This document shows, one piece after another, positions 8,067 to 41,222 of a stretch of 64,000 bases of DNA. The notes under the pieces are model-generated. The model worked only from the letters and a program-made list of their open reading frames with translations. It made no database searches and was not told the origin of the DNA. The translations under genes were made by a program, and so were the position numbers. Location: assembly GCF_013122565.1 (NCBI RefSeq), contig NZ_CP053258.1; one strand, written 5' to 3'. This stretch comes from Escherichia coli (lineage in GTDB: Bacteria; Pseudomonadota; Gammaproteobacteria; Enterobacterales; Enterobacteriaceae). Each line of letters starts with the position of its first letter. The stretch's first letter is position 1.

Positions 8067-8152
8067 TAAATAAAAAAACCTGCTGGTGAGGCAGGTTCTT
8101 TTATTTACTACAGTGACGCTAACTTGCTGATTGTGCAACATTTCGTACCAAC
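8067..8152 (-). ncRNA. Putative antitoxin sRNA (OrzO/OrzP-like), divergent from toxin gene
   Basis: Minus-strand -10 TATAAT (plus 8159-8164) and -35 TTGCAA (8182-8187); 5' region (complement of 8133-8152) matches a direct repeat in the toxin 5' UTR (8298-8322); ends at hairpin 8078-8096 with T-run on minus strand. Boundaries approximate. Confidence 0.5.
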
Positions 8153-8390: not shown

Positions 8391-8480
8391 ATGGACACGC
8401 TGACACAAAAGTTAACCGTGCTCATTGCCGTACTGGAGTTATTAGTGGCTCTGTTACGGTTGATTGATTTGTTGAAGTAA
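8391..8480 (+). CDS. zorO: 29-aa hydrophobic type I toxin peptide (ZorO/ZorP-like), MDTLTQKLTVLIAVLELLVALLRLIDLLK
   Basis: AGGAGA SD at 8381-8386; single-helix hydrophobic peptide; matches my recollection of EHEC ZorO (not verified by search). Confidence 0.65.
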   Translation: MDTLTQKLTVLIAVLELLVALLRLIDLLK

Positions 8481-8674: not shown

Positions 8675-8761
8675 GAAAATAAAAGAACCTGCTGGTGAGG
8701 CAGGTTCTTTTATTTACTACTTTGATGTTAAGTTACTGATAGTGCAACATGGCATCTCAAC
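8675..8761 (-). ncRNA. Putative antitoxin sRNA, copy 2 (OrzO/OrzP-like)
   Basis: Same architecture as copy 1; pairing region is the complement of 8743-8763, cognate UTR site at 8908-8932. Confidence 0.45.
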
Positions 8762-8999: not shown

Positions 9000-9089
9000 A
9001 TGGACACGCTGACAAAAAAGTTAACCGTGCTCATTGCCGTACTGGAGTTATTAGTGGCTCTGTTACGGTTGATTGATTTGTTGAAGTAA
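9000..9089 (+). CDS. zorP: 29-aa type I toxin peptide, copy 2 (Q6K variant), MDTLTKKLTVLIAVLELLVALLRLIDLLK
   Basis: AGGAGA SD; one substitution relative to copy 1; O versus P assignment between the two copies is arbitrary. Confidence 0.6.
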   Translation: MDTLTKKLTVLIAVLELLVALLRLIDLLK

Positions 9090-18500: not shown

Positions 18501-20897
18501 CGGATAGTTTTCCAGCGGATCTGCTGCTAAAAAGTCGGTAAGTGCAGTCATTACCTCAGGTTGTTGGTAACGGCTGGCAATTTTTTTCAGCAACGCGAGA
18601 TGACCATTATTGGCCAGGTAGCGTAATGTCATCCGGGCATCTTGTTGTTCTTTAACTGGTTTACTCAGCGCAATGGGCAGCAGCCCGGTAATGGCATGTT
18701 CCGGGTAGGTGGTGAGCCAATATTCAGCGACATCTCGTACGGATTTTAACTGGCAAAATGCGCGGGCCATCAGCAGGGCAACTTCAGTGGAACCGAATTG
18801 AGCGGCGAGGGGAACCGCCTCCTTAGGGTTTACCAGGGCATAACGCAACAGACCTGGTACCGTAGATAGACCAAATCGCTCAACCACTTTTTCAGCACCC
18901 ACGAGGTGCATGTGTGAGAGTCCATTCCAGATTGAGAGCGCTTTCTCTGCTGGTAGACGAGTGAGTATGGATACAGAAAAGGTAATAAAACCTTCATAAT
19001 CATACTTTGGTCGGGTATTTAACAACGATTCATAATCTTCCGTTTCCAGCAGACGAATGGCCGTTTTTGTTACGCCCCATTTAATATCAAATCTTTCTGG
19101 ATCAGGATTATTCTCATCAAATGCTCCGCTTCTGAATCCCAGGCGGCGTAAGACTTCAGCAGTAGAAGGTATTTCTGCTTCGGGTTGTGGCTGAGGTTTG
19201 GGGCCAATGGACTCCAGAGGTAATACGGGTAATGTAAATATCGTCGTGGCTGATTTATTCTTTTTCTTCAGCCAAATTGGATTAGTTAATATACCGGGTA
19301 ACTCACAAGCATTGGCTATCTCTTCTTTAGCATGCAATTGAGGGAAATAACTGAATAAAAGTTGTTTCTGTTCCTCACTCAACCAGGGCATTGTATTACG
19401 CAAGGTTTGAGCATTACCTAATACAATTTGTTCCATCAGGCGAGAATACCTCAGATTTTTAGCACTAAGCAAAGCTGCAGTAAGGGCATAAAGCGCCGAT
19501 TCTGGGTACTTCGAAGCCGAAATTTCGACACCTATGGCACATTCCTCTTTGATAAACAACGTAACGACATCAGGATGGTTAATTTCCTGAAGTGCGTGTC
19601 TGACAGGATAACTATCGTTAACGCCCTCTTGCAGACGTGACAGCGCATTAAGACCTTGTTCACGCAGTAGGGTTTTAATACAACGCTTCGTCATATCGCC
19701 TCCCCATCCCGTTGTGAGTTCAAGTTGATGGAAATGCTTCAGCAGACACGTTGCTTGTGGGTCAGTTGTGACAAGGGAAAGCCACTCAATCTCTGGGTAA
19801 TCATGCATAGGGGCAATTTCCAGGGCTATCTGATTGGCAATATCTGGTTTTTCTGGTAGCAAAAAAGCAATTAATGGGCGTCTGCGGGCAGGCAGTGAAG
19901 GGAGAGCATCTATGAGTTTATTAGCACAGCGTTGCCAGGTTTCCTCATCTGTGTGCGAAAGGTGTTCTCGTAAACGTAACTCTATTTCGTCGCTGAATCC
20001 ATATTTGTAGCGCATGTCGGAAATATCGTGGCTAAGGCTTACTACAGGTAGATAATAATTGTCTGCCATTTCCCCTCTTCTCAGCGCACTAAAAAGACTA
20101 TTGTAATGAAGTTTTAAAGTGGCATTTTTTGTAGGATCGGTATTTGCGTCGTCAGTCATTTGTACATGCTGTATAGCGATAACTAACTCAGTGGCATACT
20201 CAAGGCCTCGCAGTTGCACTATGCTATCCAGCCATGTATGAGGGCGACCGGGGCAGCCGATAATTAATCTTGTTAGTGTCAATATGGCGTCGGAAAGCAA
20301 CGATCCGTCTTGCTGTAATTTATGGATGCGCGAAATAGTTTCCTGTAACGCCAATTGCCATTCTGACTGGCATTGGCTGACATCGAGCTTTTGCAGACAG
20401 GCAAGGTAAAATGCTGCCCAATATGGGTACTTTTTTAGTTGCATCCAGAAGAAACCATCTTTATCAACAATGTCCAGAGGATCATTAATCAAGTGACGAT
20501 GGCTAAACGGCGCGGGTTCATCATTGGCAAAAATAACAATTGACTCACCGTCCTTCAGCCAGGGCGGCGTTTCCAACGTGGGCATCGCTTGTGGCTGTGC
20601 CGTTTCAGGCGTTGTGAAGTTTCCGGTTGGTATTGCTAACTCTTGTACTGAAATTGTGCTTGATATCGGAGAATTTATGATGGTTTCTGGCGAACCATGC
20701 TTCACATATCCCTTCTTCATCTTCTCCGCAATCAGCTTCAGTTCCGCTTTTTCCGCCGCTGCAGCATCTGCAAAGCTTTTTACCTGGCTTTGCCCGTTAG
20801 TACCGACTTTGCCCCAGGTAATATGCAGCTCGTTTCCCTGCTGCTCCACCGCCCAGAATTTATGTGATTTTTCATCCTGATAAATATAGGTTTTCAT
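17061..20897 (-). CDS. MolR-family protein, paralog C (1278 aa), N-terminal WGR-like domain
   Basis: Intact ORF; C-terminal ~480 aa nearly identical to paralog B. Confidence 0.85.
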   Translation of the reverse strand: MKTYIYQDEKSHKFWAVEQQGNELHITWGKVGTNGQSQVKSFADAAAAEKAELKLIAEKMKKGYVKHGSPETIINSPISSTISVQELAIPTGNFTTPETAQPQAMPTLETPPWLKDGESIVIFANDEPAPFSHRHLINDPLDIVDKDGFFWMQLKKYPYWAAFYLACLQKLDVSQCQSEWQLALQETISRIHKLQQDGSLLSDAILTLTRLIIGCPGRPHTWLDSIVQLRGLEYATELVIAIQHVQMTDDANTDPTKNATLKLHYNSLFSALRRGEMADNYYLPVVSLSHDISDMRYKYGFSDEIELRLREHLSHTDEETWQRCANKLIDALPSLPARRRPLIAFLLPEKPDIANQIALEIAPMHDYPEIEWLSLVTTDPQATCLLKHFHQLELTTGWGGDMTKRCIKTLLREQGLNALSRLQEGVNDSYPVRHALQEINHPDVVTLFIKEECAIGVEISASKYPESALYALTAALLSAKNLRYSRLMEQIVLGNAQTLRNTMPWLSEEQKQLLFSYFPQLHAKEEIANACELPGILTNPIWLKKKNKSATTIFTLPVLPLESIGPKPQPQPEAEIPSTAEVLRRLGFRSGAFDENNPDPERFDIKWGVTKTAIRLLETEDYESLLNTRPKYDYEGFITFSVSILTRLPAEKALSIWNGLSHMHLVGAEKVVERFGLSTVPGLLRYALVNPKEAVPLAAQFGSTEVALLMARAFCQLKSVRDVAEYWLTTYPEHAITGLLPIALSKPVKEQQDARMTLRYLANNGHLALLKKIASRYQQPEVMTALTDFLAADPLENYPQKIAKLPGWCSPEVWHRPLLRSNGKALSDSAILHLCTMLSFPREATLYPGITQVIEACTPQSLADFAWDLFLSWESASGSAKDNWAFTTLGILGNDDTARKLTPLIRAWPGESQHKRATVGLDILAAIGSDIALMQLNGIAQKLKFKALQDQARTKIAQIAESRQLTVAELEDRLAPDLGLDDNGSLLLDFGPRQFTVSFDESLKPFVRDTSGNRLKDLPKPNKSDDETLAEEAVNRYKLLKKDVRTVAAQQISRLEAAMCQRRRWTAEQFRLFLVEHPLVRHITQRLMWGIYDADNHLICCFRVAEDGSFSDGQDTPFTLAQGCIGIPHVLEIPAPQAAEFAQLFSDYELLPPFRQLDRPWSQLSDSEKNSNDLQRWAGRQAASWRVAGLMNKGWQRGDVLDGGGYYSFYKAVDDGYVELSVTPGFCVGLPVTEISDNQKIEHIQLYKLTPRKSVYPFSVLDDITASELINDIESLFD

Positions 20898-20909
20898 TGC
20901 AAATTCCTT

Positions 20910-22350
20910 TTAATCAAACAGTGATTCAATATCGTTAATCAGCTCGCTGGCAGTGATGTCGTCGAGCACGGAGAAGGGATAAACCGATTTGCGCGGCGTC
21001 AGTTTGTACAACTGAATGTGCTCAATTTTTTGGTTATCGCTGATTTCGGTGACGGGCAATCCAACACAGAAGCCGGGTGTCACACTCAGTTCGACGTAGC
21101 CATCATCCACAGCTTTATAAAATGAGTAATAGCCGCCACCATCCAGAACATCGCCCCGTTGCCAGCCTTTATTCATCAGCCCGGCGACGCGCCCACTCGC
21201 TGCCTGGCGACCAGCCCAGCGCTGCAAATCGTTGCTGTTTTTTTCTGAATCAGAGAGCTGAGACCAGGGGCGATCAAGTTGACGGAACGGTGGCAGGAGT
21301 TCGTAGTCAGAGAACAGTTGGGCAAATTCAGCAGCCTGTGGGGCCGGGATTTCCAGCACATGCGGGATACCGATACAGCCCTGCGCAAGGGTTAACGGGT
21401 TATCGTGACCGTCGCTAAAACTGCCATCCTCCGCCACGCGAAAACAGCAAATAAGCTGATTATCAGCGTCATAAATGCCCCACATCAGACGTTGGGTGAT
21501 ATGACGAACCAGGGGATGCTCAACCAGAAACAGACGGAACTGTTCTGCAGTCCAGCGGCGACGCTGACACATGGCGGCTTCCAGACGCGAAATCTGTTGT
21601 GCAGCTACCGTGCGGACATCTTTTTTCAACAACTTGTAGCGACTTACCGCTTCCTCAGCCAGAGTTTCATCATCGCTTTTGTTCGGTTTGGGCAGGTCTT
21701 TCAGACGGTTGCCGGAAGCATCGCGCACAAACGGTTTTAAGGATTCATCAAAGCTGACGGTGAACTGGCGTGGGCCGAAATCCAGCAGCAGCGAACCGTT
21801 ATCATCCAGACCGAGATCGGGCGCTAACCGGTCTTCCAGCTCTGCGACAGTGAGCTGGCGGCTTTCGGCAATCTGGGCGATTTTAACTCTTGCCTGATCC
21901 TGCAAGGCTTTAAATTTTAGCTTTTGCGCAATGCCGTTAAGCTGCATAAGAGCGATATCGCTGCCGATAGCAGCAAGAATATCCAGCCCGACAGTGGCGC
22001 GTTTATGCTGGGATTCCCCTGGCCAGGCGCGGATGAGCGGGGTGAGTTTGCGGGCGGTGTCATCGTTACCCAGAATCCCCAGCGCGGTAAATGCCCAGTT
22101 ATCTTTAGCGGAGCCACTGGCAGATTCCCAACTGAGGAAGAGATCCCAGGCGAAATCAGCAAGAGACTGCGGAGTACAGGCCTCGATTACCTGTGTAATC
22201 CCGGGGTAAAGGGTGGCTTCACGGGGGAAAGAGAGCATGGTGCACAAGTTCAGGATAGCTGAGTCAGGAAGTGCCTTGCCGTTACTGTGCAGAAGCGGGC
22301 GATGCCATACTTCTGGCGAACACCAGGTGGGGAGTTTGGCGATTTTCTGC
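20910..22350. repeat. ~1.45-kb near-identical block shared by paralogs C and B (copy 2)
   Basis: See 17061..18500. Confidence 0.8.
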
Positions 22351-24650
22351 GGAAAATTATCGAGTGGGTCGCAGTTAAGGACATCTAACAAACCTGTAAG
22401 CACTTCTGGCTGATTATAGCGGTGGGCAATTTGTTCCATTAACGGCTGATGCCCATGATGAGCCAAATAGCGTATTGCCATCACAGCATCCTCACGTTCA
22501 CTGCCCGGTTTGCCGAGTACAGCAGGTAATAGACCTGTAATAGCATGTTCCGGATAGGTTAATAACCAACGCTGTGCGACGTCACGTACAGATTTTAGCT
22601 GACGAAAAGCGCGTGCCATTAATAGCGCCACGTCGGTTGTACCAAAACGTGCGGCTAAAGGAATGGCTTCCTGAGGTACGACTAAGGCGTGACGCAGCAA
22701 GCCGGGTAATGTGGGAAGACCGTAATAGTCCACTACTTCGCATGCGTTAATCAGATGTAGGTGAGTCAGTGCGTTCCATATTTTCAGTGCTTTATTTTCT
22801 GTTAGCTGAAGCAATACAGACACATTGACAAGGATATGACTTGCCCACCGAGGTTTATCCCAGATCTTTAATAAAGCTTCGTAATTGTCTTGCTCGAAAA
22901 AATCAATGGCAGCCTGAGGTATACCCCAACCAAGCTCTTCGCAATGGAAGTTCAACAAATCCAGGATATCTTTCGCTGATGGGGATGGCGCAGATGGCTC
23001 AGTCAGATTTTTTGTTGCGGGGATAGATTCCAGGGGGGAAAGAGGTAATACCCGGAGAGTGAGGTTGATACCAGCAACCTTTTTCTTTTTTTTCACCCAT
23101 GAAGGGGCGATCAATATACTAGGTAACTCATTCTGATGAGCAATTTTTTCGCTGGACATAAGCTGAGGAAAATAACTAAATAAAATTTGTTGCTGTTTTT
23201 CGTCAAGGCAGGGTAGCGTTTTATGTAAGGCTTGCGCATTACCCAAGATGATGCGCTCCAGTAAACGATAATAGCGCGGGTTATTTGTGTGATTTAAGGC
23301 TTTTGTTAATGCATAAAGTGCAGCTTCTGGATGTAAATTTGTTGCGCATTCCACTTCACTGATACATTCTTCTTTTATTAATATATTAATGGCGTCAGGA
23401 TGATTAACTTGTGTAATTAGATTTTTAACTGAATAACTATCCTTTATCCAACGCTGAAGAAGCGGAAGAGCTTTTACCCCTCGTTCGCGCAGTAATGTCG
23501 CAGTGCATTTTTCAGCCATCTGCCAGTCGTTATAGCGCTTAAGTTGGTTAAGATTCATTAATTCATTGAGTGCCTGCGCATCTGTGGCAACGATATCCAA
23601 CCATTCCATTTCTGGGTAATTAACACATTGCACTAAATCAAGGACAATTTGATTAGCAATTTCAGGTTGTTCAGGCAAAAGAAAACCAATTAAAGGACGT
23701 TTACGTGGAGACAGGAAAGGCAACGCTTGAGTAAGCTTTTTCATGCACCGTTGCCATGTTTTTTCATCAGTGCGCGAGAGATGATTTCGCAAGTGAAAAT
23801 CTACAGTGCTGAAGCCGAACTCAAAACGTTGTTCTGATATTGTGTTACTGAGAATAAGCGTTGGTACGGAATTATTTGTAAAAAAATTGTATTCCATGCG
23901 AACATACAAAAGGCATTTATTTAATGCATCACAATTTCCTGGATCTTGATTTTGATCATCAGATATCTGAATTTGCTGCAATAGCAAGACTAATTCGGTC
24001 GCGTATTCTACCCCATGTTGTTGCACCAGATAATCAAAAAGATCATTGACACTATCGCTATTTTGCATAAGTAACTTGACCAGCAAAAAGAATGCATCGG
24101 AGAAAATAGAACCGTCTATATTTTTCTGCTGAACGCGCATGATTGCTTCATCCCGGCCTCGTTGCCATTCCGGGCGGCAGTCACTCACATCAAAATGCTG
24201 TAATTGTGCAAGAAAATAGTATTCCTCATATTTGTTTTCCCATAAGAATGACCATAACGAGATATCTTTAGCAAACGTGCTGACACTGTCTGCTGGGAAT
24301 TTCCTACTGCTAAATACTCTCTTCGTTTCGAGAATAATTGGTTCAATGTCTGCAATCCACGGTGGTGTGTCGACATCAGTAATAATTGGATGTTGTTCGC
24401 TATCATCATCTGTGGTGGGAACAGCAATCAGCATGTTTATATCGTCAGTCGATTTTACATACCCCTTCTTCACCTTCTCCGCAATCAGCTTCAGTTCCGC
24501 TTTTTCCGCCGTTGCAGCATCTGCAAAGCTTTTTACCTGACTTTGCCCGTTAGTGCCGACTTTGCCCCAGTTGATATGCAGCTCGTTGTCTTGCTGCTCA
24601 ACCGCCCAGAATTTATGTGATTTTTCGTCCTGATAGATATAGGTTTTCAT
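20910..24650 (-). CDS. MolR-family protein, paralog B (1246 aa), N-terminal WGR-like domain
   Basis: Intact ORF; same N- and C-terminal blocks as paralog C, divergent middle. Confidence 0.85.
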   Translation of the reverse strand: MKTYIYQDEKSHKFWAVEQQDNELHINWGKVGTNGQSQVKSFADAATAEKAELKLIAEKVKKGYVKSTDDINMLIAVPTTDDDSEQHPIITDVDTPPWIADIEPIILETKRVFSSRKFPADSVSTFAKDISLWSFLWENKYEEYYFLAQLQHFDVSDCRPEWQRGRDEAIMRVQQKNIDGSIFSDAFFLLVKLLMQNSDSVNDLFDYLVQQHGVEYATELVLLLQQIQISDDQNQDPGNCDALNKCLLYVRMEYNFFTNNSVPTLILSNTISEQRFEFGFSTVDFHLRNHLSRTDEKTWQRCMKKLTQALPFLSPRKRPLIGFLLPEQPEIANQIVLDLVQCVNYPEMEWLDIVATDAQALNELMNLNQLKRYNDWQMAEKCTATLLRERGVKALPLLQRWIKDSYSVKNLITQVNHPDAINILIKEECISEVECATNLHPEAALYALTKALNHTNNPRYYRLLERIILGNAQALHKTLPCLDEKQQQILFSYFPQLMSSEKIAHQNELPSILIAPSWVKKKKKVAGINLTLRVLPLSPLESIPATKNLTEPSAPSPSAKDILDLLNFHCEELGWGIPQAAIDFFEQDNYEALLKIWDKPRWASHILVNVSVLLQLTENKALKIWNALTHLHLINACEVVDYYGLPTLPGLLRHALVVPQEAIPLAARFGTTDVALLMARAFRQLKSVRDVAQRWLLTYPEHAITGLLPAVLGKPGSEREDAVMAIRYLAHHGHQPLMEQIAHRYNQPEVLTGLLDVLNCDPLDNFPQKIAKLPTWCSPEVWHRPLLHSNGKALPDSAILNLCTMLSFPREATLYPGITQVIEACTPQSLADFAWDLFLSWESASGSAKDNWAFTALGILGNDDTARKLTPLIRAWPGESQHKRATVGLDILAAIGSDIALMQLNGIAQKLKFKALQDQARVKIAQIAESRQLTVAELEDRLAPDLGLDDNGSLLLDFGPRQFTVSFDESLKPFVRDASGNRLKDLPKPNKSDDETLAEEAVSRYKLLKKDVRTVAAQQISRLEAAMCQRRRWTAEQFRLFLVEHPLVRHITQRLMWGIYDADNQLICCFRVAEDGSFSDGHDNPLTLAQGCIGIPHVLEIPAPQAAEFAQLFSDYELLPPFRQLDRPWSQLSDSEKNSNDLQRWAGRQAASGRVAGLMNKGWQRGDVLDGGGYYSFYKAVDDGYVELSVTPGFCVGLPVTEISDNQKIEHIQLYKLTPRKSVYPFSVLDDITASELINDIESLFD

Positions 24651-24662
24651 TGCTAAATCCTT

Positions 24663-27600
24663 TTAATCAAACAGTGATTCGATGTCGTTAATCAGCTCGC
24701 TGGCGGTGATGTCGTTGAGCACGGAGAAAGTGGGTGAGGATTGTTTACCATAGCGATCATAAGGGGCGGTGATTTTTACGCTTTCGACAGGCAGCAGGTC
24801 GCTATACCCCGTTTCGCCATAAATTAATGAAAAAGGTTCTGTTTCAAGTTCGAGAGCGCCATAAGGGGTAGATTTGCGCATCGCATAGATGCTGCCGCTT
24901 TCTTCCAGACGTTGCCAGCCTCTGCGTTCCAGCCCGACAATGCGTCCGGCCTGGCAGAGACGTCCGTTCCAGCGTGACAATTCATGGGCATCACGCTCGT
25001 TATCCGCAAGGTGGTAACTACCACGATCGAGCTGTTGGAAAGGGGGAAGCAGTTCGTAATCAATGTATATTTGCCTGAATGCAGCGGCGGATTCAGGGGG
25101 GATTTCCAGCACATGCGGAATACCGATGTTTCCTGCTGGCAGCGTGAATAGCTCATCCTGCGCATCGCTGTAAGTGCTGTCTTCTGCCACACGAAAACAG
25201 GTGATAAGGGCGTTTTCATCGTTATAAACCCCCCATAACAGCCGTCGGGTTAAGTGACGTACCAGCGGATGCTCCACCAGAAACAGGCGGAACTGCTCTG
25301 CCGTCCAGCGTCTGCGCTGGCACATAGCCTGCTCCAGACGATCAATCTGCTGGCTGGCAATGGCGCGCACATCTTTCTTCAATTGTTTAAAGAGGTTAAC
25401 GGCGTCAGTTGCCAGTGTTTGATCATCGCTCTGGTTTGGTTTGGGTAAATCTTTCAGGACTTTGCCGTTTGCGTCGCGAACCACGGGTTTCAAGGTTTCG
25501 TTAAAACCAACGGTGAATTGACGTGGGCCGAAATCAAGTGTCAGCGAGCCATTGCTATCAAGCCCTAAATCTGGAGCCAGGCGGTCTTCCAGTTCAGCCA
25601 TAGTCAGCCCACGGTTTTCAGCAACTATGTTGATTTTCTCGCGGGCATGTTCCTGTAATGCTTTGAATTTAATTTTTCGCGCGATGCCATTAAGCAGCAT
25701 TAGCGCAACATCGCTGCCAATATCAGCTAATACATCCAGCCCGGACACCGCCCGTTTATGCTGGGATTCCCCAGGCCAGGCGCGGATGAGCGGAGTTAAT
25801 TTACGCGCGGTGTCGTCATTGCCTAAAATCCCAAGCGAAGTAAATGCCCAGTTTTCTTTTGCTGGGGCACCAGCTTCTGTCCAGGCGGTATACAGATCCC
25901 AGCCAAAGTCAGCCAGTGATTCGCGGGTGAAGGTTTCTCTAATGATATCCAGCCCAGCGTAGGCGGTAATGTCGCGTGGAAAGCTCAACATTGTGCCGAG
26001 GTGGCGCATAGCGTCATCTGGCAGAGGCAGGTTGTTACTTTTAAGCCGAGGTCTGTGCCATAAGGTGAACTGATAAAAGCCGGGCAGTGGGGCGATTTTT
26101 GCAGGATATTCTTCCAGTGGGTCGCTATCAAATAATGTTGCCAGCGCAGCTAAAACATCAGGTTGATTATATCCTTGGGCGATTTCCTCAATCGTTTCTC
26201 GCTGGTTTAAATTCACCAGCAGGCGGAGCGCCTGGCGGGCACAATCACGATCTTTTCCTTTTTTGCCCAGGGCCACAGGAAGTAGCCCGGCGGCGGCATG
26301 GCGCGGATAATCAGTTAGCCAGTTTCGCGCATCTTCATAAGACATTTTTTTCTGTAATTGTTGCGCCATCGGTAAGGCCAGTTCACTGACACCGAGGAAA
26401 AAGGGGAAGAAGCACAGGCGTCGTGGATCACGTTGCAGGCAGGTCATAAATGCAGGTATGGCGGCGCTACCAAAAAGTGCCAGAATATTTCCCTCACCAG
26501 AGTAGTTATCTTCTTTGACTATCTGGTTAAGAAAAGAAATGGCCTGTTGACCAGGCAGGTAACAGAGGGCAATAAGATTCCAGCTTTTGTATGCATTGTT
26601 ATGGTATTGCACAAATTCAGCATTCAATGCTGGAAAATCGAAGCGTAGCAGGGCATCAACGGCACTTTGTGGCGCCGGAATTTTTTCGTATATTTTTTCT
26701 CCGCTCTCCCGCCATTTTTCAAAACCAAGATGCCACAGTATTTGTTGCTCCGGTGTAAGCGGTATTAAGTGTTTCTCCCAGCTTGCTTTTTTCATCGGTG
26801 CCAGGTCGGTAAACAATGTTTGTTTTGTCGCCTGCTGTTGGGCTATTTGCTGGAAGCGGGTGATAAGGTAAGTACGGGTCAGTTTTTTGGCAATCTCTGG
26901 AGTGATATCCGAAACAGAAGGAACTGGGAGCACAGGAAGATCAAACACCGGCGTATTTTTCTTTTTCTCTTTGGTCATCCAGGGAGGCGAAACAAACAGC
27001 TCTGGCAACATATCCGCAGTGGCATATTCACATTCTTCAGCGACTGACTGCGGACGACATTCAGATAAGATGCCAGCGGCTTTGGCATTAACCCAGGGAA
27101 TGACGTCGCATACTAACTCTGGCGTGATGGTAATCAGTTTGATAAGTGCGTTACGCCACTGTGCATCTTCATGTATTGCCAGCAAAGTAGCATAAGCGGC
27201 AAGAGCCGCAGCGGGATGTTTTTGACAGGCTTTGCTTAAGTATTCCAGGTGCTTTTTCTTGCCAATCACACCGAGGATCAGAATTTGAATCGCATCCGGG
27301 TGATTCGTTTTCCATAGCCATTTGACAAGATTTTCAGTCTCGCTGTTGCGCTCGAAAAGATAAGTGGGATTGTCAGAATGCTCTTCCGTAAACTCAAGAA
27401 GGATCTGGCTTACACCCCGAATTCCATTATTCGCCAGCAACATTGCCAGATAAGCGCGAAAATTACGAAAATCACGATACAACGGTGGGAAGTCGTATTT
27501 TTCCACTGTACTAAGAGCAGTATCATCGGTTATCACCAGTCTTAACCAGGTCATCGCCGGAACGTTTTGGTCTGCATAGCGTAGAGCCATAGCATTGGCA

Positions 27601-28469
27601 ATATCCGGGCGTTCAGGGAGCAGTAACGCCGCAAAAGGTTGCCGTGCTGGAGATAGCGAGGGAATAGCCGCGAGTACTTTATCTACACAGCGTTGCCACT
27701 CATCTTCTGAAGCGAGTGAAAGATGATGACATAGACGTTGATGCCAACTAGGTAGCGATTCTGCTTCGTGATTAGGTGGAATGATGGTGGTTACTGCGCC
27801 TTTTACTGGTTTATATCTAAGTTGAATAGCGAGAAGGGCAATTTCAACGGCGCTTTCCAGACCACAGCGAATGACTAAGTCATCGACCAGTTCATCTGCA
27901 GAGTAAGAGTTCCAGAAACTCCAGAGCAATGCTGCATCAGATTGCGCACTCCCTGTCTGTTGATTACCCTGAACTCGCATTTGTAACTCAGCAAAAGCAT
28001 GCTGCCAGTTTTCTGGATAAGAACGGTAATTGTTGTCGGGATCATATGCCCTGGTGTTATCTGCAATACGCTTCCATATCTCACCGTCTTTGCGCAGATA
28101 ATTGATCTCTCTGGGGCGAGAGCGATGAGGGAAAGCAAATCGATTAATATCGTCAGTTACCGGAATGACTGCATCATCAGCCAGCCATGGGCGTTTGTTT
28201 TTACTCTCAAGGGAAGTTTCAACTTCAGGAGTGGCTTTGGTGCTGGAGATATGCACGTTTGCTGAAGCATCTTCCACATAGCCTTTTTTCGTTTTCTCTG
28301 CGATAAGCTTTAGTTCCGCTTTTGCCGCTGCCGCAGCATCCGCAAAACTTTTTACCTGGCTTTGCCCTTGGGTGCCAACTTTTCCCCAACTGATATGCAA
28401 CTCGTTTCCCTGTTGCTCCACCGCCCAGAATTTATGTGATTTTTCGTCCTGATAGATAAAGCGTCTCAT
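24663..28469 (-). CDS. molR: MolR-family protein, paralog A (1268 aa), first gene of the array next to metG
   Basis: Intact ORF; N-terminus MRRFIYQDEKSHKFWAVEQQGNELHISWGKVG; occupies the K-12 molR (pseudogene) position. Confidence 0.8.
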   Translation of the reverse strand: MRRFIYQDEKSHKFWAVEQQGNELHISWGKVGTQGQSQVKSFADAAAAAKAELKLIAEKTKKGYVEDASANVHISSTKATPEVETSLESKNKRPWLADDAVIPVTDDINRFAFPHRSRPREINYLRKDGEIWKRIADNTRAYDPDNNYRSYPENWQHAFAELQMRVQGNQQTGSAQSDAALLWSFWNSYSADELVDDLVIRCGLESAVEIALLAIQLRYKPVKGAVTTIIPPNHEAESLPSWHQRLCHHLSLASEDEWQRCVDKVLAAIPSLSPARQPFAALLLPERPDIANAMALRYADQNVPAMTWLRLVITDDTALSTVEKYDFPPLYRDFRNFRAYLAMLLANNGIRGVSQILLEFTEEHSDNPTYLFERNSETENLVKWLWKTNHPDAIQILILGVIGKKKHLEYLSKACQKHPAAALAAYATLLAIHEDAQWRNALIKLITITPELVCDVIPWVNAKAAGILSECRPQSVAEECEYATADMLPELFVSPPWMTKEKKKNTPVFDLPVLPVPSVSDITPEIAKKLTRTYLITRFQQIAQQQATKQTLFTDLAPMKKASWEKHLIPLTPEQQILWHLGFEKWRESGEKIYEKIPAPQSAVDALLRFDFPALNAEFVQYHNNAYKSWNLIALCYLPGQQAISFLNQIVKEDNYSGEGNILALFGSAAIPAFMTCLQRDPRRLCFFPFFLGVSELALPMAQQLQKKMSYEDARNWLTDYPRHAAAGLLPVALGKKGKDRDCARQALRLLVNLNQRETIEEIAQGYNQPDVLAALATLFDSDPLEEYPAKIAPLPGFYQFTLWHRPRLKSNNLPLPDDAMRHLGTMLSFPRDITAYAGLDIIRETFTRESLADFGWDLYTAWTEAGAPAKENWAFTSLGILGNDDTARKLTPLIRAWPGESQHKRAVSGLDVLADIGSDVALMLLNGIARKIKFKALQEHAREKINIVAENRGLTMAELEDRLAPDLGLDSNGSLTLDFGPRQFTVGFNETLKPVVRDANGKVLKDLPKPNQSDDQTLATDAVNLFKQLKKDVRAIASQQIDRLEQAMCQRRRWTAEQFRLFLVEHPLVRHLTRRLLWGVYNDENALITCFRVAEDSTYSDAQDELFTLPAGNIGIPHVLEIPPESAAAFRQIYIDYELLPPFQQLDRGSYHLADNERDAHELSRWNGRLCQAGRIVGLERRGWQRLEESGSIYAMRKSTPYGALELETEPFSLIYGETGYSDLLPVESVKITAPYDRYGKQSSPTFSVLNDITASELINDIESLFD

Positions 28470-28577
28470 TCTGCATCCCTGTAATTTTATCCAGTTGAAT
28501 GCAGATGCTACCAGTATTTATGCGGGTTAGAGAGAGACAAAATCGCAAGAAAACAACTTTAGGAATTTATAAAGAAA

Positions 28578-28600
28578 AGGCGCTGTCGATGCAGCGCCTT
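28578..28600 (-). terminator. Probable metG intrinsic terminator
   Basis: aaggcgctg-tcgatg-cagcgcctt hairpin followed on minus strand by T-rich run. Confidence 0.5.
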
Positions 28601-28609
28601 GAAGGGGGA

Positions 28610-30643
28610 TTATTTCACCTGATGACCCGGTTTAGCACCGGCATCCGGGCTTAGCAGGAAGATATCTTTCCCGCCAGGACCAGCAGCCATTACCATGCCT
28701 TCGGAGATACCAAAGCGCATTTTACGCGGCGCCAGGTTAGCCACCATAATGGTGTGACGACCAATCAGAGCCTGCGGATCCGGGTAAGCAGAACGAATGC
28801 CGGAGAAAACATTACGTTTTTCACCGCCGAGATCCAGTGTCAGTCGCAGCAGTTTGTCAGAACCTTCAACAAACTCTGCATTTTCAATCAGCGCCACGCG
28901 CAGGTCAACTTTAGCGAAGTCGTCAAAGGTGATGGTTTCCTGAATCGGATCGTCTGCCAGCGGGCCAGTAACTGGCGCGGCAGCTGCTTTCACTTCTTCT
29001 TTAGAGGCTTCCACCAGTGCTTCAACCTGCTTCATATCGATGCGGTTATACAGCGCCTTGAACGGATTCACTTTGTGGCCCAGCAGCGGTTGCTGGATAC
29101 CATCCCAGGTCAGTTCCGTATTGAGGAATGCTTCTGCACGCTCGGTCAGTTTCGGCAGTACCGGCTTCAGGTAAGTCATCAGCACGCGGAACAGGTTTAT
29201 GCCCATTGAGCAAATTGCCTGCAGGTCGGCATCGCGGCCTTCCTGTTTCGCCACAACCCACGGAGCCTGTTCATCGACATAGCGGTTAGCCAGATCAGCC
29301 AGCGCCATGATTTCGCGCACGGCTTTACCAAATTCGCGGCTTTCCCACGCTTCACCAATCACTTCAGCGGCATCAGTGAAGGTTTTGTACAACTGCGGGT
29401 CAGCCAGTTCGCTTGCCAGCACACCGTCAAAACGCTTGTTGATAAAGCCCGCATTACGAGAGGCCAGGTTAACCACTTTGTTAACGATATCGGCATTCAC
29501 GCGCTGAACGAAATCTTCCAGGTTGAGATCGATATCATCAATGCGCGAAGAGAGTTTCGCAGTGTAGTAGTAACGCAGGCTGTCAGCGTCAAAATGATTC
29601 AGCCAGGTGCTGGCTTTAATAAAGGTACCGCGAGACTTAGACATCTTCGCGCCGTTCACCGTCACATAGCCATGAACAAACAGGTTGGTCGGCTTGCGGA
29701 AGTTGCTGCCTTCCAGCATTGCTGGCCAGAACAGACTGTGGAAGTAAACAATATCTTTACCGATGAAGTGGTACAGCTCGGCGGTGGAGTCTTTCTTCCA
29801 GTATTCATCGAAGCTTACGCTGTCGCCGCGCTTGTCGCACAGATTCTTGAAAGAACCCATATAGCCAATCGGCGCATCTAGCCAGACGTAGAAATATTTA
29901 CCCGGCGCGTTCGGAATTTCAAAACCGAAGTACGGCGCGTCGCGGGAGATATCCCACTGTTGCAGGCCGGATTCAAACCACTCCTGCATTTTATTTGCCA
30001 CCTGCTCCTGCAACGCACCGCTGCGGGTCCATGCCTGCAACATTTCGCTGAAAGAGGGCAGATCAAAGAAGAAGTGTTCAGAATCACGCATTACCGGCGT
30101 AGCGCCAGAAACCACCGATTTCGGCTCGATCAATTCAGTCGGGCTGTAGGTCGCGCCGCAAACTTCGCAGTTATCGCCGTATTGATCCGGGGATTTACAT
30201 TTCGGGCAGGTGCCTTTCACAAAACGGTCCGGCAGGAACATGCCTTTTTCCGGATCGTACAGCTGAGAGATGGTGCGGTTTTTAATAAAACCGTTTTCTT
30301 TCAAGCGAGTATAGATAAGCTCAGACAACTGGCGGTTCTCTTCGCTGTGCGTCGAGTGATAGTTGTCATAGCTGATGTTAAAGCCTGCGAAATCAGTCTG
30401 ATGCTCCTGACTCATTTCGCCAATCATCTGCTCCGGGGTGATACCAAGCTGCTGAGCTTTCAGCATGATCGGTGTACCGTGGGCATCGTCGGCGCAGATG
30501 AAGTTGACCTCGTGGCCGCGCATTCGCTGGTAACGGACCCAGACATCAGCCTGGATGTGCTCCAGCATATGGCCGAGGTGGATTGAGCCGTTAGCGTACG
30601 GCAGTGCGCACGTCACCAGAATTTTCTTCGCGACTTGAGTCAT
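28610..30643 (-). CDS. metG: Methionyl-tRNA synthetase (677 aa)
   Basis: N-terminus [25 protein letters not shown] (HIGH motif), KMSKS present; ORF trimmed by 3 codons. Confidence 0.95.
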
Positions 30644-30774
30644 AGTAGGCATTACTTCTTAATAGTGAAAAGGGGTTAGATAGTACCAAATGGGAAAATG
30701 TTAAGTAAGTACTTCTCTATATTCTTCAGGTAAACTATCAGCTGATGGTTTATCTATACAAAAAAGGAGTCGGG

Positions 30775-31884
30775 ATGAACGAACAATCCCAGGCCAAATC
30801 ACCAGAAGCCTTGCGCGCAATGGTCGCCGGGACACTGGCCAATTTTCAGCACCCAACCCTGAAGCATAACCTCACCACGCTGAAAGCGTTGCACCATGTC
30901 GCCTGGATGGACGACACGTTGCATGTGGAACTGGTTATGCCATTCGTCTGGCATAGCGCGTTTGAAGAGTTAAAAGAGCAATGTAGCGCCGAACTGCTGC
31001 GTATCACCGGGGCGAAAGCTATCGACTGGAAACTGTCGCACAATATCGCCACCTTAAAACGCGTGAAGAATCAGCCGGGTATTAATGGCGTGAAGAACAT
31101 CATTGCGGTCAGTTCCGGTAAAGGCGGCGTGGGTAAATCCTCCACGGCGGTAAACCTGGCGCTGGCACTGGCGGCGGAAGGGGCGAAAGTCGGCATTCTG
31201 GACGCCGATATCTACGGCCCATCAATTCCCACCATGCTGGGCGCAGAAAATCAGCGTCCAACTTCGCCGGACGGTACCCATATGGCACCGATTATGTCTC
31301 ATGGCCTGGCAACCAATTCAATTGGTTATCTGGTTACTGACGACAATGCGATGGTGTGGCGTGGACCGATGGCGAGCAAGGCGTTAATGCAGATGTTGCA
31401 GGAAACCTTGTGGCCGGATCTCGACTATCTGGTGCTTGATATGCCGCCAGGCACCGGTGACATTCAGCTGACGCTGGCGCAGAACATTCCGGTGACTGGT
31501 GCGGTAGTGGTCACCACCCCGCAGGACATCGCGCTGATCGATGCGAAAAAAGGCATTGTGATGTTCGAGAAAGTCGAAGTTCCGGTGCTCGGTATTGTCG
31601 AGAACATGAGTGTGCATATTTGCAGTAACTGTGGTCACCATGAACCGATTTTCGGTACCGGTGGTGCAGAGAAACTGGCTGAAAAATACCATACACAGCT
31701 GCTGGGGCAGATGCCGTTACACATCTCCTTACGTGAGGATCTCGATAAAGGCACGCCAACGGTTATCAGCCGTCCGGAGAGCGAATTTACCGCTATCTAC
31801 CGCCAGCTGGCTGACCGCGTTGCAGCTCAGCTCTACTGGCAGGGTGAAGTCATTCCAGGCGAGATTTCCTTCCGCGCGGTCTAA
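30775..31884 (+). CDS. mrp: Fe-S cluster carrier ATPase Mrp/ApbC (369 aa)
   Basis: P-loop GKGGVGKS, CxxC motif; AAGGAG SD before ATG at 30775; divergent from metG as in K-12. Confidence 0.9.
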   Translation: MNEQSQAKSPEALRAMVAGTLANFQHPTLKHNLTTLKALHHVAWMDDTLHVELVMPFVWHSAFEELKEQCSAELLRITGAKAIDWKLSHNIATLKRVKNQPGINGVKNIIAVSSGKGGVGKSSTAVNLALALAAEGAKVGILDADIYGPSIPTMLGAENQRPTSPDGTHMAPIMSHGLATNSIGYLVTDDNAMVWRGPMASKALMQMLQETLWPDLDYLVLDMPPGTGDIQLTLAQNIPVTGAVVVTTPQDIALIDAKKGIVMFEKVEVPVLGIVENMSVHICSNCGHHEPIFGTGGAEKLAEKYHTQLLGQMPLHISLREDLDKGTPTVISRPESEFTAIYRQLADRVAAQLYWQGEVIPGEISFRAV

Positions 31885-37614: not shown

Positions 37615-37641
37615 CCCCCTCATGATGAGGGGGCTTTTTTT
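37615..37641 (+). terminator. Intrinsic terminator after yehA
   Basis: ccccctcatgatgaggggg hairpin followed by cttttttt. Confidence 0.55.
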
Positions 37642-38196: not shown

Positions 38197-39021
38197 TTAT
38201 CGCATTATGCCCATGAAGCCATGTACGCCCATATACACACCAACTAAGCCAATCAACAGACTGGAAAAATAGGGGGCGCGTTTAGCGAGAGTGTTAAATC
38301 CGCTCCAGCGTTTTGCGACCTGCTGAACGCTGATTGCTGCGCCAACGCCTACGGTGACAAGCGTTAACGCCAGGCCAATGCTAAAACTTACGACCAGTGT
38401 TGCGCCCAGTGTCAGGGCTTTCAACTGAATGCAAATCAACAGCACGGTAATTGCTGCCGGGCAGGGGATAAGGCCACCGGTTAAGCCAAATAACAAAATT
38501 TGCCAGTTGGTGACCTCTCTACCATCAAAGCGTCGTTTAATGTCATTAGCATGGGCTCGTGCATGAGCATCCTGATACTCGCCATGTTCGTGATGGTGAT
38601 GATGCCCATGGTCGTGGTGATCTTCGTGATCGTGGTGATGATGTTCATGATCATGCTCGTGCATATTCTCCAGCCAGTTGCGTTCGCCGCGCCAGGTACG
38701 CCAGAACATCCAGAACGCGGTGCCAATAATGATCACTGCAGAAATCAACTGGAGCCACGGTTCTGCAGATTGAGCAGTAAAGCGTTTGCTGATCACCATC
38801 CCGCCAAAGGCAATCAACCAGACCACCGCGGTATGCGAAATGGTTGCTGCCAGTCCGAGCATCACCGCCTGTTTAATGGTGCCTTTGATGGCGATGATAA
38901 ACGCCGCCATCATCGTTTTTGAGTGCCCTGGTTCCAGGCCATGAAGCGCACCAAGTAAGATGGCGCTGGGGATGAAGAACCAGGCGTTTCCTTGCTGAAG
39001 AAGAGTTGTAAATTCGGTCAT
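38197..39021 (-). CDS. rcnA: Nickel/cobalt efflux protein RcnA
   Basis: Membrane protein with very His-rich loop (HEHDHEHHHHDHEDHHDHGHHHHHEH). Confidence 0.9.
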   Translation of the reverse strand: MTEFTTLLQQGNAWFFIPSAILLGALHGLEPGHSKTMMAAFIIAIKGTIKQAVMLGLAATISHTAVVWLIAFGGMVISKRFTAQSAEPWLQLISAVIIIGTAFWMFWRTWRGERNWLENMHEHDHEHHHHDHEDHHDHGHHHHHEHGEYQDAHARAHANDIKRRFDGREVTNWQILLFGLTGGLIPCPAAITVLLICIQLKALTLGATLVVSFSIGLALTLVTVGVGAAISVQQVAKRWSGFNTLAKRAPYFSSLLIGLVGVYMGVHGFMGIMR

Positions 39022-39141: not shown

Positions 39142-39414
39142 ATGTCTCATACAATCCGTGATAAACAGAAACTGAAAGCGCGTGCCAGTAAGATTCAGGG
39201 CCAGGTCGTGGCGCTCAAGAAAATGCTCGACGAACCGCATGAATGCGCTGCAGTTTTACAACAGATTGCTGCTATCCGTGGCGCGGTAAACGGTCTGATG
39301 CGGGAAGTGATTAAAGGTCATCTGACGGAACACATCGTTCACCAGGGGGATGAGCTAAAACGTGAAGAAGATCTGGATGTCGTTCTGAAGGTGCTGGATT
39401 CTTATATCAAATAA
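39142..39414 (+). CDS. rcnR: Ni/Co-responsive repressor RcnR (90 aa)
   Basis: CsoR/RcnR-family small helical protein, divergent from rcnA. Confidence 0.9.
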
Positions 39415-39494
39415 TTTATTAACGCGATTGTAAAACTGCCGTTTTTCCTCGTTTACAACGCGTGCGCTGGACATTACCATCCTCCTCTGCGATT

Positions 39495-39605
39495 TATCAT
39501 CGCAACCAAACGACTCGGGGTGCCCTTCTGCGTGAAGGCTGAGAAATACCCGTATCACCTGATCTGGATAATGCCAGCGTAGGGAAGTCACGGACCACCA
39601 GGTCA
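39495..39605 (+). promoter_or_regulatory. TPP (thiamine pyrophosphate) riboswitch in thiM leader
   Basis: ggggtgcccttctgcgtgaaggctgagaaatacccgtatcacctgatctggataatgccagcgtagggaa matches the classic thiM thi-box aptamer, immediately upstream of thiM SD. Confidence 0.8.
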
Positions 39606-39636
39606 TTGCTTCTTCACGTTATGGCAGGAGCAAACT

Positions 39637-40425
39637 ATGCAAGTCGACCTGCTGAGTTCCGCGCAATCTGCGCACACGTTACACCTTTTTCACCAACATT
39701 CCCCTCTTGTGCACTGCATGACCAACGATGTGGTGCAAACCTTTACTGCCAATACCTTGCTGGCGCTCGGTGCATCGCCAGCGATGGTTATCGAAACCGA
39801 AGAGGCCAGTCAGTTTGCGGCTATTGCTAGTGCCTTGCTGATTAACGTTGGCACGCTGACGCAGCCACGCGCACAGTCGATGTGTGCCGCCGTTGAGCAA
39901 GCAAAAAGCTCTCAAACACCCTGGACGCTTGATCCAGTAGCGGTGGGTGCACTCGATTATCGCCGCCGTTTTTGTCTGGAACTTCTGTCTCATAAGCCAA
40001 CCGCCATACGTGGTAATGCTTCGGAAATCATGGCATTAGCTGGCATTGCTAATGGCGGACGGGGAGTGGATACCACTGACGCCGCAGCTAACGCGATACC
40101 CGCTGCACAAACACTGGCACGGGAAACTGGCGCAATCGTCGTGGTCACTGGCGAGATGGATTATGTTACCGATGGACATCGTATCATTGGTATTCACGGT
40201 GGCGATCCGTTAATGACCAAAGTGGTAGGAACTGGCTGTGCATTATCGGCGGTTGTCGCTGCCTGCTGTGCGTTACCAGGCGATACGCTGGAAAATGTCG
40301 CATCTGCCTGTCACTGGATGAAACAAGCCGGAGAACGCGCAGTCGTCAGAAGCGAGGGGCCAGGCAGTTTTGTTCCACATTTCCTTGATGCGCTCTGGCA
40401 ATTGACGCAGGAGGTGCAGGCATGA
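39637..40425 (+). CDS. thiM: Hydroxyethylthiazole kinase
   Basis: 262-aa ORF after TPP riboswitch; GGCAGGAG SD. Confidence 0.95.
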
Positions 40426-41222
40426 AACGAATTAACGCTCTGACGATTGCCGGTACTGATCCGAGTGGTGGTGCGGGGATTCAGGCCGATCTTAAAACCT
40501 TCTCGGCACTTGGCGCTTATGGTTGCTCAGTTATTACTGCACTGGTGGCGCAAAATACCCGTGGCGTACAGTCGGTGTATCGCATTGAGCCTGATTTTGT
40601 CGCCGCCCAGCTCGATTCGGTGTTCAGCGATGTGCGAATCGACACCACTAAAATCGGTATGTTGGCGGAAACCGATATTGTTGAAGCGGTGGCAGAACGG
40701 TTGCAACGTTATCAGATCCAAAACGTGGTACTCGACACCGTTATGCTGGCAAAAAGCGGCGACCCGCTGCTTTCACCTTCGGCGGTTGCTACGCTGCGCA
40801 GTCGATTATTGCCACAGGTTTCATTAATAACGCCAAACTTGCCCGAAGCTGCTGCCTTGCTCGACGCGCCACACGCGCGCAACGAACAGGAAATGCTGGA
40901 ACAAGGGCGATCGCTGTTGGCGATGGGCTGTGGCGCAGTGCTAATGAAAGGTGGTCATCTGGATGATGAACAAAGCCCGGACTGGCTGTTTACTCGTGAG
41001 GGAGAACAACGATTTACTGCACCGCGCATTATGACCAAAAACACCCACGGCACTGGTTGTACGCTCTCTGCGGCGTTGGCTGCACTACGCCCGCGCCATA
41101 CAAACTGGGCTGACACCGTACAGGAGGCAAAAAGCTGGCTTTCATCGGCGTTAGCCCAGGCCGACACGCTGGAAGTTGGTCACGGTATTGGTCCGGTTCA
41201 CCACTTCCACGCCTGGTGGTGA
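40422..41222 (+). CDS. thiD: Hydroxymethylpyrimidine/phosphomethylpyrimidine kinase
   Basis: 266-aa ORF, ATGA-overlapped with thiM stop. Confidence 0.95.

Follow-up and report, generated by a model that had tools for sequence, protein, structure and literature searches.

A TPP riboswitch upstream of thiMD in an Escherichia coli genome, with a leader identical to that of the K-12 thiM riboswitch

The thiM riboswitch of Escherichia coli is among the best-characterised riboswitches. Its ligand is thiamine pyrophosphate (TPP), the active form of vitamin B1, and the two genes behind it, thiM and thiD, serve salvage. It was reportedly described as a TPP riboswitch by Winkler, Nahvi and Breaker in 2002, and crystal structures of the thiM aptamer are said to have been obtained by Serganov et al. 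and by Edwards and Ferre-D'Amare, both in 2006. Binding of TPP by the thiM RNA of strain K-12 has been established by earlier in-line probing and crystal structures, and the published structures have the ligand contacted by nucleotides of J3-2 and P4/P5. The same organism has two further riboswitches of the same Rfam family and with the same ligand, those of thiC and thiB (tbpA), found at other loci and in front of other genes. The thiC aptamer has a P3a extension; the thiM subtype is without it. TPP riboswitches of Firmicutes that have intrinsic terminators (e.g., the tenA and thiC leaders of Bacillus subtilis) have the same aptamer family and ligand and are likewise OFF switches. Their platform is a terminator/antiterminator pair, in contrast to that of thiM, which consists of SD, anti-SD and anti-anti-SD and has no terminator. 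Translation initiation is also controlled by the thiC and thiB riboswitches, with involvement of Rho (PMC5499598).

In K-12, the thiM leader has been dissected with reporter fusions, and a model was proposed in which the RBS and AUG are sequestered (Bastet et al. 2017, PMC5499598). A 6-codon thiM translational fusion was repressed by TPP, whereas transcriptional fusions of 6, 10 and 20 codons were unrepressed. Transcriptional fusions of at least 34 codons were repressed, and bicyclomycin abolished that repression. Rho termination is described as secondary to the repression of translation, with codons 20-34 needed, and the Rho elements have been placed in thiM codons 9-34, outside the leader (PMC5499598). 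Rho protects nt 201-210 of the transcript, and termination occurs at nt 231, 237 and 262. Mutants of the RBS and of the AUG mimic repression, and the thiM Rho module is functional behind the btuB riboswitch. The ligand is sensed both co- and post-transcriptionally, P1 shows TPP-dependent protection in RNase H assays, and thiMD mRNA falls with TPP (all PMC5499598).

The locus considered here lies in a 64-kb window of E. coli DNA, the whole stretch that was analysed. It resembles the K-12 thiM riboswitch in its whole non-coding part, its flanking genes and its gene order, and differs in coding substitutions only. The 222-nt rcnR-thiM intergenic region, with its promoter, aptamer, anti-SD and SD, shows 100% identity to that of K-12 MG1655; the RNA is thus the very one that has been used as the model thiM riboswitch. 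Identity of the transcript extends up to nt 168. Within the first 160 nt of thiM, differences from K-12 are found only at 39655, 39660, 39676, 39726 and 39747; the first three of these fall within the first 40 nt of the gene, and that at 39655 (G>A) changes Gly7 to Ser.

The original prediction had placed a TPP riboswitch upstream of thiMD at 39495-39636 and had named an Rfam covariance scan as the test that could refute it. That scan (Rfam 15, gathering thresholds, full 64-kb window) gave a significant match to RF00059 (TPP riboswitch, THI element) at 39506-39602 on the plus strand, with a score of 71.2 bits and E = 5.1e-12. The curated gathering score is 54.3, which the match exceeds by 17 bits. 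The alignment covers model positions 1-105 of 105 and is untruncated; the only part of the model that is deleted is an optional stem at positions 41-51, for which P3a is our own label. When 39400-39800 was rescanned permissively on both strands, the TPP family was the only one returned (E 3.2e-14). No second TPP riboswitch was found in the 64-kb window at the Rfam 15 gathering thresholds. RefSeq gives the label 'TPP riboswitch' to the homologous 97 nt in a strain matched at 100% by a 286-nt query from this region.

The helices of the aptamer can be read from the cmscan alignment, all on the plus strand. P1 pairs 39512-39515 with 39586-39589, P2 pairs 39516-39521 with 39546-39552, and P3 occupies 39522-39539. 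P4 is formed by 39558-39561 with 39580-39583 and P5 by 39564-39567 with 39574-39577. Three pairs in this alignment are non-standard: the outermost of P1, one at the outer end of P2 and one in P3, where an alternative register is possible via a bulge. Minimum free energy (MFE) folding of the isolated aptamer recovers P1, P2, P4 and P5. The ligand-contact motifs are present, the pyrimidine sensor as the J3-2 sequence CUGAGA at 39539-39544 and the pyrophosphate sensor as the P4/P5 sequence ACCUGAUC...GCG.AGGGAA. The P4/P5 sequence ACCUGAUCUGGAUAAUGCCAGCGUAGGGAA is intact at 39557-39586 and is the same as in K-12.

Two other Rfam matches, together with the TPP riboswitch, make up all that the 64-kb window contains at gathering thresholds. 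Both are full-length matches to the OrzO-P antitoxin sRNA on the minus strand, at 8072-8145 and 8681-8754, and score 88.8 and 90.2 bits against a gathering score of 60. Near them are two hydrophobic ORFs of 29 amino acids on the plus strand, at 8391-8480 (MDTLTQKLTVLIAVLELLVALLRLIDLLK, beginning MDTLTQKL) and at 9000-9089 (beginning MDTLTKKL). These pairs of sRNA and ORF have the appearance of a tandem zorO-orzO/zorP-orzP type I toxin-antitoxin locus. To our knowledge K-12 is without this locus.

P1 and thiM share a strand, with the 3' end of P1 47 nt before the ATG; thiD is the next gene. The thiM gene (hydroxyethylthiazole kinase, 39637-40425, plus strand) was assigned by TIGR00694 with 335.8 bits over a cut-off of 256.4; its ORF from the ATG at 39637 has 262 codons, and the product differs from that of K-12 by 9 amino acids. 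The thiD gene (HMP/HMP-P kinase, 40422-41222, plus strand; TIGR00097, 362.4 bits, cut-off 204.95) overlaps the thiM stop codon in an ATGA and comes second in the regulated operon. Upstream of thiM are rcnR (39142-39414, plus strand, stop codon 39412-39414) and rcnA (38197-39021, minus strand).

A predicted sigma-70-like promoter was located by consensus scan at 39452-39480 (plus strand), with the -35 hexamer TTTACA at 39452-39457, a 17-nt spacer and the -10 hexamer TACCAT at 39475-39480; it matches the consensus at 9 of 12 positions. The published numbering has the AUG at nt 151-153 and an RBS mutation at G142 (PMC5499598), which puts +1 at 39487 and G142 at 39628, inside AGGAG. The start site so placed, 7 nt beyond the end of the -10 hexamer, derives from that numbering rather than from mapping data. 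The mutant name G40A in the same paper (PMC5499598) misfits a numbering with AUG at 151 and was left out of the coordinate mapping; it fits the numbering of the crystal structures, in which G40 would be window position 39541. Between the rcnR stop codon and the promoter, at 39415-39451, there is no intrinsic terminator, and since rcnR is on the same strand, transcripts of rcnR induced by Ni or Co are predicted to be able to read into the riboswitch.

At the extreme 5' end of the thiMD transcript so defined, before the Rfam aptamer, is a predicted 6-bp hairpin, UGCGAU-UUAUC-AUCGCA (39488-39504, plus strand). It appears in free, aptamer-locked and P1-forbidden folds and may serve as an mRNA stabiliser. 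Between P1 and the anti-SD a further hairpin, the linker hairpin GACC-ACCA-GGUC, is predicted at 39593-39604 (plus strand). The anti-SD CUUCUU follows at 39609-39614 (plus strand) and, in the fold pair tables, pairs either with AGGAG (OFF) or with GGGAAG at 39582-39587 (ON). The SD core AGGAG is at 39626-39630 (plus strand), 6 nt upstream of the ATG.

The switch was examined by folding transcripts from 39487 to 39645, 39660, 39665 or 39700, either free or aptamer-locked. To stand in for the TPP-bound state, the locked fold had the Rfam aptamer pairs imposed and the junction nucleotides barred from pairing. At every length the free MFE structure contains an anti-sequestor helix (39572-39626, plus strand) in which 39572-39590 pairs with 39607-39626. 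In it the aptamer contributes the pairings GGGAAG:CUUCUU and UGCCA:UGGCA, and GGAG is left unpaired. The helix uses the 3' strands of P5, P4 and P1, encloses the linker hairpin and is mutually exclusive with the aptamer. In the locked fold, CUUCU pairs with AGGAG, and the mean probability that AGGAG is unpaired falls from 0.45 to 0.007. When the linker (39590-39622) was shuffled, none of 300 sequences gave an equal drop in SD accessibility, and 6 of 300 reached as low a value when locked.

Locked folds that reach 39660 or beyond add an OFF-state closing helix (39592-39659, plus strand), in which 39592-39604 pairs with 39646-39659 over the start region, enclosing the SD hairpin and the AUG. The linker hairpin is predicted in the free fold at all lengths and in the locked fold ending at 39645; in longer locked folds its bases pair with 39646-39659 instead. 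The K-12 differences at 39655 and 39660 lie in or beside this helix. The base at 39655 is bulged in it, and the two alleles do not differ in the energy of the locked fold (-49.4 vs -49.1 kcal/mol). Locking the aptamer costs 4.5 kcal/mol (-47.9 locked vs -52.4 free), a gap that by our own estimate could be paid by ligand binding in the nM-to-uM range. These folding models support the classic translational mechanism.

Folding energy as such is uninformative at this locus. MFE z-scores are -1.09 for the leader and -0.12 for the aptamer, and MFE stability was dropped as a criterion. With values so unremarkable, folding energy alone would not have flagged a riboswitch, and the case is carried by the covariance model and the switch-specific folding comparison.

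An aptamer of this family could also govern an intrinsic, Rho-independent terminator in the manner of Bacillus instead of ribosome binding. That is the commonest platform for TPP riboswitches in Firmicutes, and thiMD mRNA does drop with TPP in K-12 (PMC5499598). No stem followed by a U-run, or other site resembling an intrinsic terminator, was found on the plus strand between 39100 and 41400, however, and the CUUCUU...AGGAG hairpin that follows the aptamer is without a U tract. The K-12 fusions speak against it as well, in that a 6-codon translational fusion is repressed and transcriptional fusions of 6, 10 and 20 codons are not (PMC5499598). Control through an intrinsic terminator is thus highly improbable.

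The sequence of events proposed for SD sequestration is as follows. Transcription would start near 39487, probably from the sigma-70-like promoter. At low TPP, the aptamer's 3' half (39572-39590) would pair with 39607-39626, including the anti-SD CUUCUU; the SD AGGAG would then be free and thiM would be translated, with thiD presumably translated by coupling to thiM. When TPP is bound, P1-P5 (39512-39589) would be locked, and the freed CUUCU would pair with AGGAG. The helix between 39592-39604 and 39646-39659 would cover the start region, and binding of the 30S subunit would be blocked. A C-rich, G-poor stretch at about 39677-39711 would become open to Rho because ribosomes are kept off the early coding region, and Rho would stop transcription at about 39717-39748, leaving less thiMD mRNA. 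TPP binding, translational repression and Rho dependence enter this scheme from experiments on the identical K-12 sequence, and the same behaviour would be expected of the source strain.

The Rho layer was mapped onto the window from K-12 coordinates (PMC5499598), which gives a putative termination module within thiM at 39677-39748 (plus strand). The protected nt 201-210 correspond to 39687-39696, and the termination sites at nt 231, 237 and 262 to 39717, 39723 and 39748. The stretch at about 39677-39711 is rut-like, with 36% C and 4-16% G in 25-nt windows that start at 39677-39697 and extend to 39721. Over 39677-39748 the sequence differs from K-12 only at 39726 and 39747, near the mapped termination sites.

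Rho could in principle be controlled directly, through a rut site in the leader (cf. ribB and mgtA), with translation as a secondary effect. Rho-dependent regulation of thiM is documented (PMC5499598), and the leader has no intrinsic terminator. Set against this, the Rho elements of K-12 map to thiM codons 9-34 rather than to the leader, mutating the RBS or the AUG has the same effect as repression, and the module still functions when placed after the btuB riboswitch (PMC5499598). In the window the C-rich, G-poor stretch (39677-39721) is coding, and the change in fold on locking the aptamer is centred on the SD. Direct control of Rho is accordingly very unlikely. The original prediction had spoken of classic translational control. 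Its core stands, given sequestration of the SD in constrained folds and the lack of an intrinsic terminator; regulation is nonetheless not purely translational, in view of the Rho layer known from K-12 (PMC5499598).

The leader is nearly universal in the species. Of 5426 complete E. coli genomes, 5424 match a 286-nt query (window 39415-39700), and the RefSeq feature beneath the match is a riboswitch labelled thiM. In 4353 of the 5424 the identity over the leader is at least 99%. There are 87 genomes with no match over at least 80% of the 154-nt leader, and 306 extra partial copies. One strain matched by the query at 100%, DA33133 (NZ_CP029574.1, 1-1549), has its rcnB interrupted by ISSen4, an insertion sequence of the IS3 family. 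The rcnB of the window is apparently uninterrupted, being a continuous ORF that ends at 37640 on the minus strand.

Comparison was extended to other Enterobacterales by scanning representative genomes with a pattern for the aptamer core without P3a, which returned at least 120 loci. Among the matches listed, 43 have a ThiM homologue (52-85% identity) at a similar distance downstream. These are mostly from named Enterobacterales genera, with a few unclassified MAGs, and include Escherichia albertii, Citrobacter, Enterobacter, Kluyvera, Pantoea, Erwinia, Serratia, Edwardsiella, Pectobacterium and others. The window sequence and these 43 loci among the matches listed form a 44-sequence alignment. 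The aptamer is near-invariant in it, although for P1, P2 and P4 this partly reflects how the sequences were collected, with a search pattern that fixed much of P2, P4 and the junctions. P3 and the expression platform are free of this bias. Across the 44 leaders, 99.0% of aptamer pair cells are standard, against 35-58% in slid controls. Six pairs have changed on both sides: P3 accounts for four of them, and P5 and the SD helix for one each. P3 and P5 both show compensatory changes.

The expression platform is also well conserved, with the CUUCUU and GGAG columns at 90% or more. Each of the 44 leaders has a CUUC or UUUC, all four bases of which pair with the SD core in 43 cases, and GGAG is conserved in 44 of 44. 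The linker from P1 to the anti-SD is represented by 32 distinct sequences in the 44 leaders, and it usually forms a hairpin. Its stems include GACC/GGUC, GACAC/GUGUC, GAUGCC/GGCAUC and GAUACC/GGUAUC. The linker hairpin has a mean MFE of -5.7 kcal/mol and a mean z of -2.3, with z below -1 in 36 of 44; these statistics are understated, with the conclusion unchanged, since in five Enterobacter-like leaders a CUUC in the linker loop was picked, giving linkers of 0.0 kcal/mol. The outward extension of the SD:anti-SD helix (UUG:CAA in E. coli) is not conserved beyond Escherichia- and Kluyvera-like leaders among the 44. Conservation is absent from the sequence upstream of the aptamer in other genera in this alignment.

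Clean sequestration of the SD in silico had been expected in every orthologue, and this expectation failed. Nearest-neighbour folding gave it for just 17 of the 44, and the drop exceeded 0.1 in 19 of 44. The linker is rich in G+C, and such folding often favours alternative pairings of it; we ascribe the figure of 17 of 44 to shortcomings of the energy model and do not read it as a sign of another mechanism. As the folding result was reproduced only in part, conservation of the motifs and the analysis of the linker hairpin were relied on instead.

These comparisons also bear on whether the Rfam match could be a thi-box that has decayed or arisen by chance and regulates nothing at present. The non-significant MFE z-scores are what such a relic might show. 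Against it are the E value of 5e-12 over the full model, the identity of the leader to the experimentally validated one of K-12, conservation in 5424 of 5426 E. coli genomes, and an architecture kept in 43 other leaders among the matches listed. That the match is a relic is extremely improbable, the most remote of the explanations weighed here. The locus shows all the features by which RF00059 and the thiM-type SD-sequestering platform are defined, as far as they can be examined in the sequence. The element is, with a probability of about 0.97, the E. coli thiM TPP riboswitch, a cis-acting 5' leader of the thiMD mRNA that acts as proposed above for SD sequestration. It is an already known and ordinary riboswitch, and nothing contradicts the identification.

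The location given at the outset holds up, with the RF00059 match, thiM and thiD downstream, the RefSeq label and a leader identical to that of K-12; its limits can be drawn more closely. The interval 39495-39636 holds the aptamer and most of the expression platform. It begins 8 nt inside the transcript, taking +1 as 39487, and ends before the early-coding nucleotides (to about 39659) used in the OFF-state fold. The SD had been given as GGCAGGAG at 39623-39630, and that sequence is there, with the thiM ATG at 39637-39639. The functional SD core, AGGAG at 39626-39630, is narrower than GGCAGGAG; UGGCA at 39622-39626, whose GGCA opens GGCAGGAG, is part of the ON-state anti-sequestor helix. The functional unit spans about 39452 (promoter) to about 39748 (Rho sites) and is translational first and Rho-transcriptional second. 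A structured RNA was recognised here from raw sequence with coordinates and mechanism right. The finding is useful in that it annotates the locus correctly and serves the scan as a positive control; as a discovery it carries little weight.

Some other E. coli genomes have an island with an integrase inserted within the thiM TPP aptamer, at the equivalent of about 39571-39584 of the window. Such insertions were examined in NZ_CP122801.1 (strain ETEC1734, 19961-31025) and in NZ_CM172609.1. In ETEC1734 an island of about 10.9 kb is flanked by two Rfam-annotated copies of the TPP riboswitch and carries a tyrosine recombinase, a TIR-domain protein and a recombinase-family protein. The copy on the rcnR side has the native promoter and aptamer up to ...GCCAGCGUAGGG (about 39584 of the window). 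That on the thiM side is a hybrid, in which a foreign 5' part with a different P3 loop, contributed by the island, precedes the native 3' part. Strain ExPEC has its leader interrupted by about 5 kb containing an integrase pseudogene and IS3 copies; the two sides have only AATGCCAGCGTAG in common, and thiM retains the 3' third of the aptamer. This insertion is a decayed island, and its truncated integrase fragment gave no Pfam match. A riboswitch-integrase junction is common to 29 genomes and falls into two sequence classes.

As at tRNA genes, islands seem to integrate site-specifically into the aptamer and to rebuild their target in doing so. It may be that the aptamer doubles as an attachment site for genomic islands of the tyrosine-recombinase kind, as tRNA genes do; we put this forward tentatively and regard it as somewhat doubtful. 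A search of the literature on integration at the thiM riboswitch found nothing relevant, which is no proof of novelty. The window itself has an unoccupied site and no island, and for this locus the attachment-site reading would add only the description 'intact attB'. Were such integration general, then in a few percent of E. coli thiMD would be driven from another promoter and governed by a riboswitch that is either hybrid or broken.
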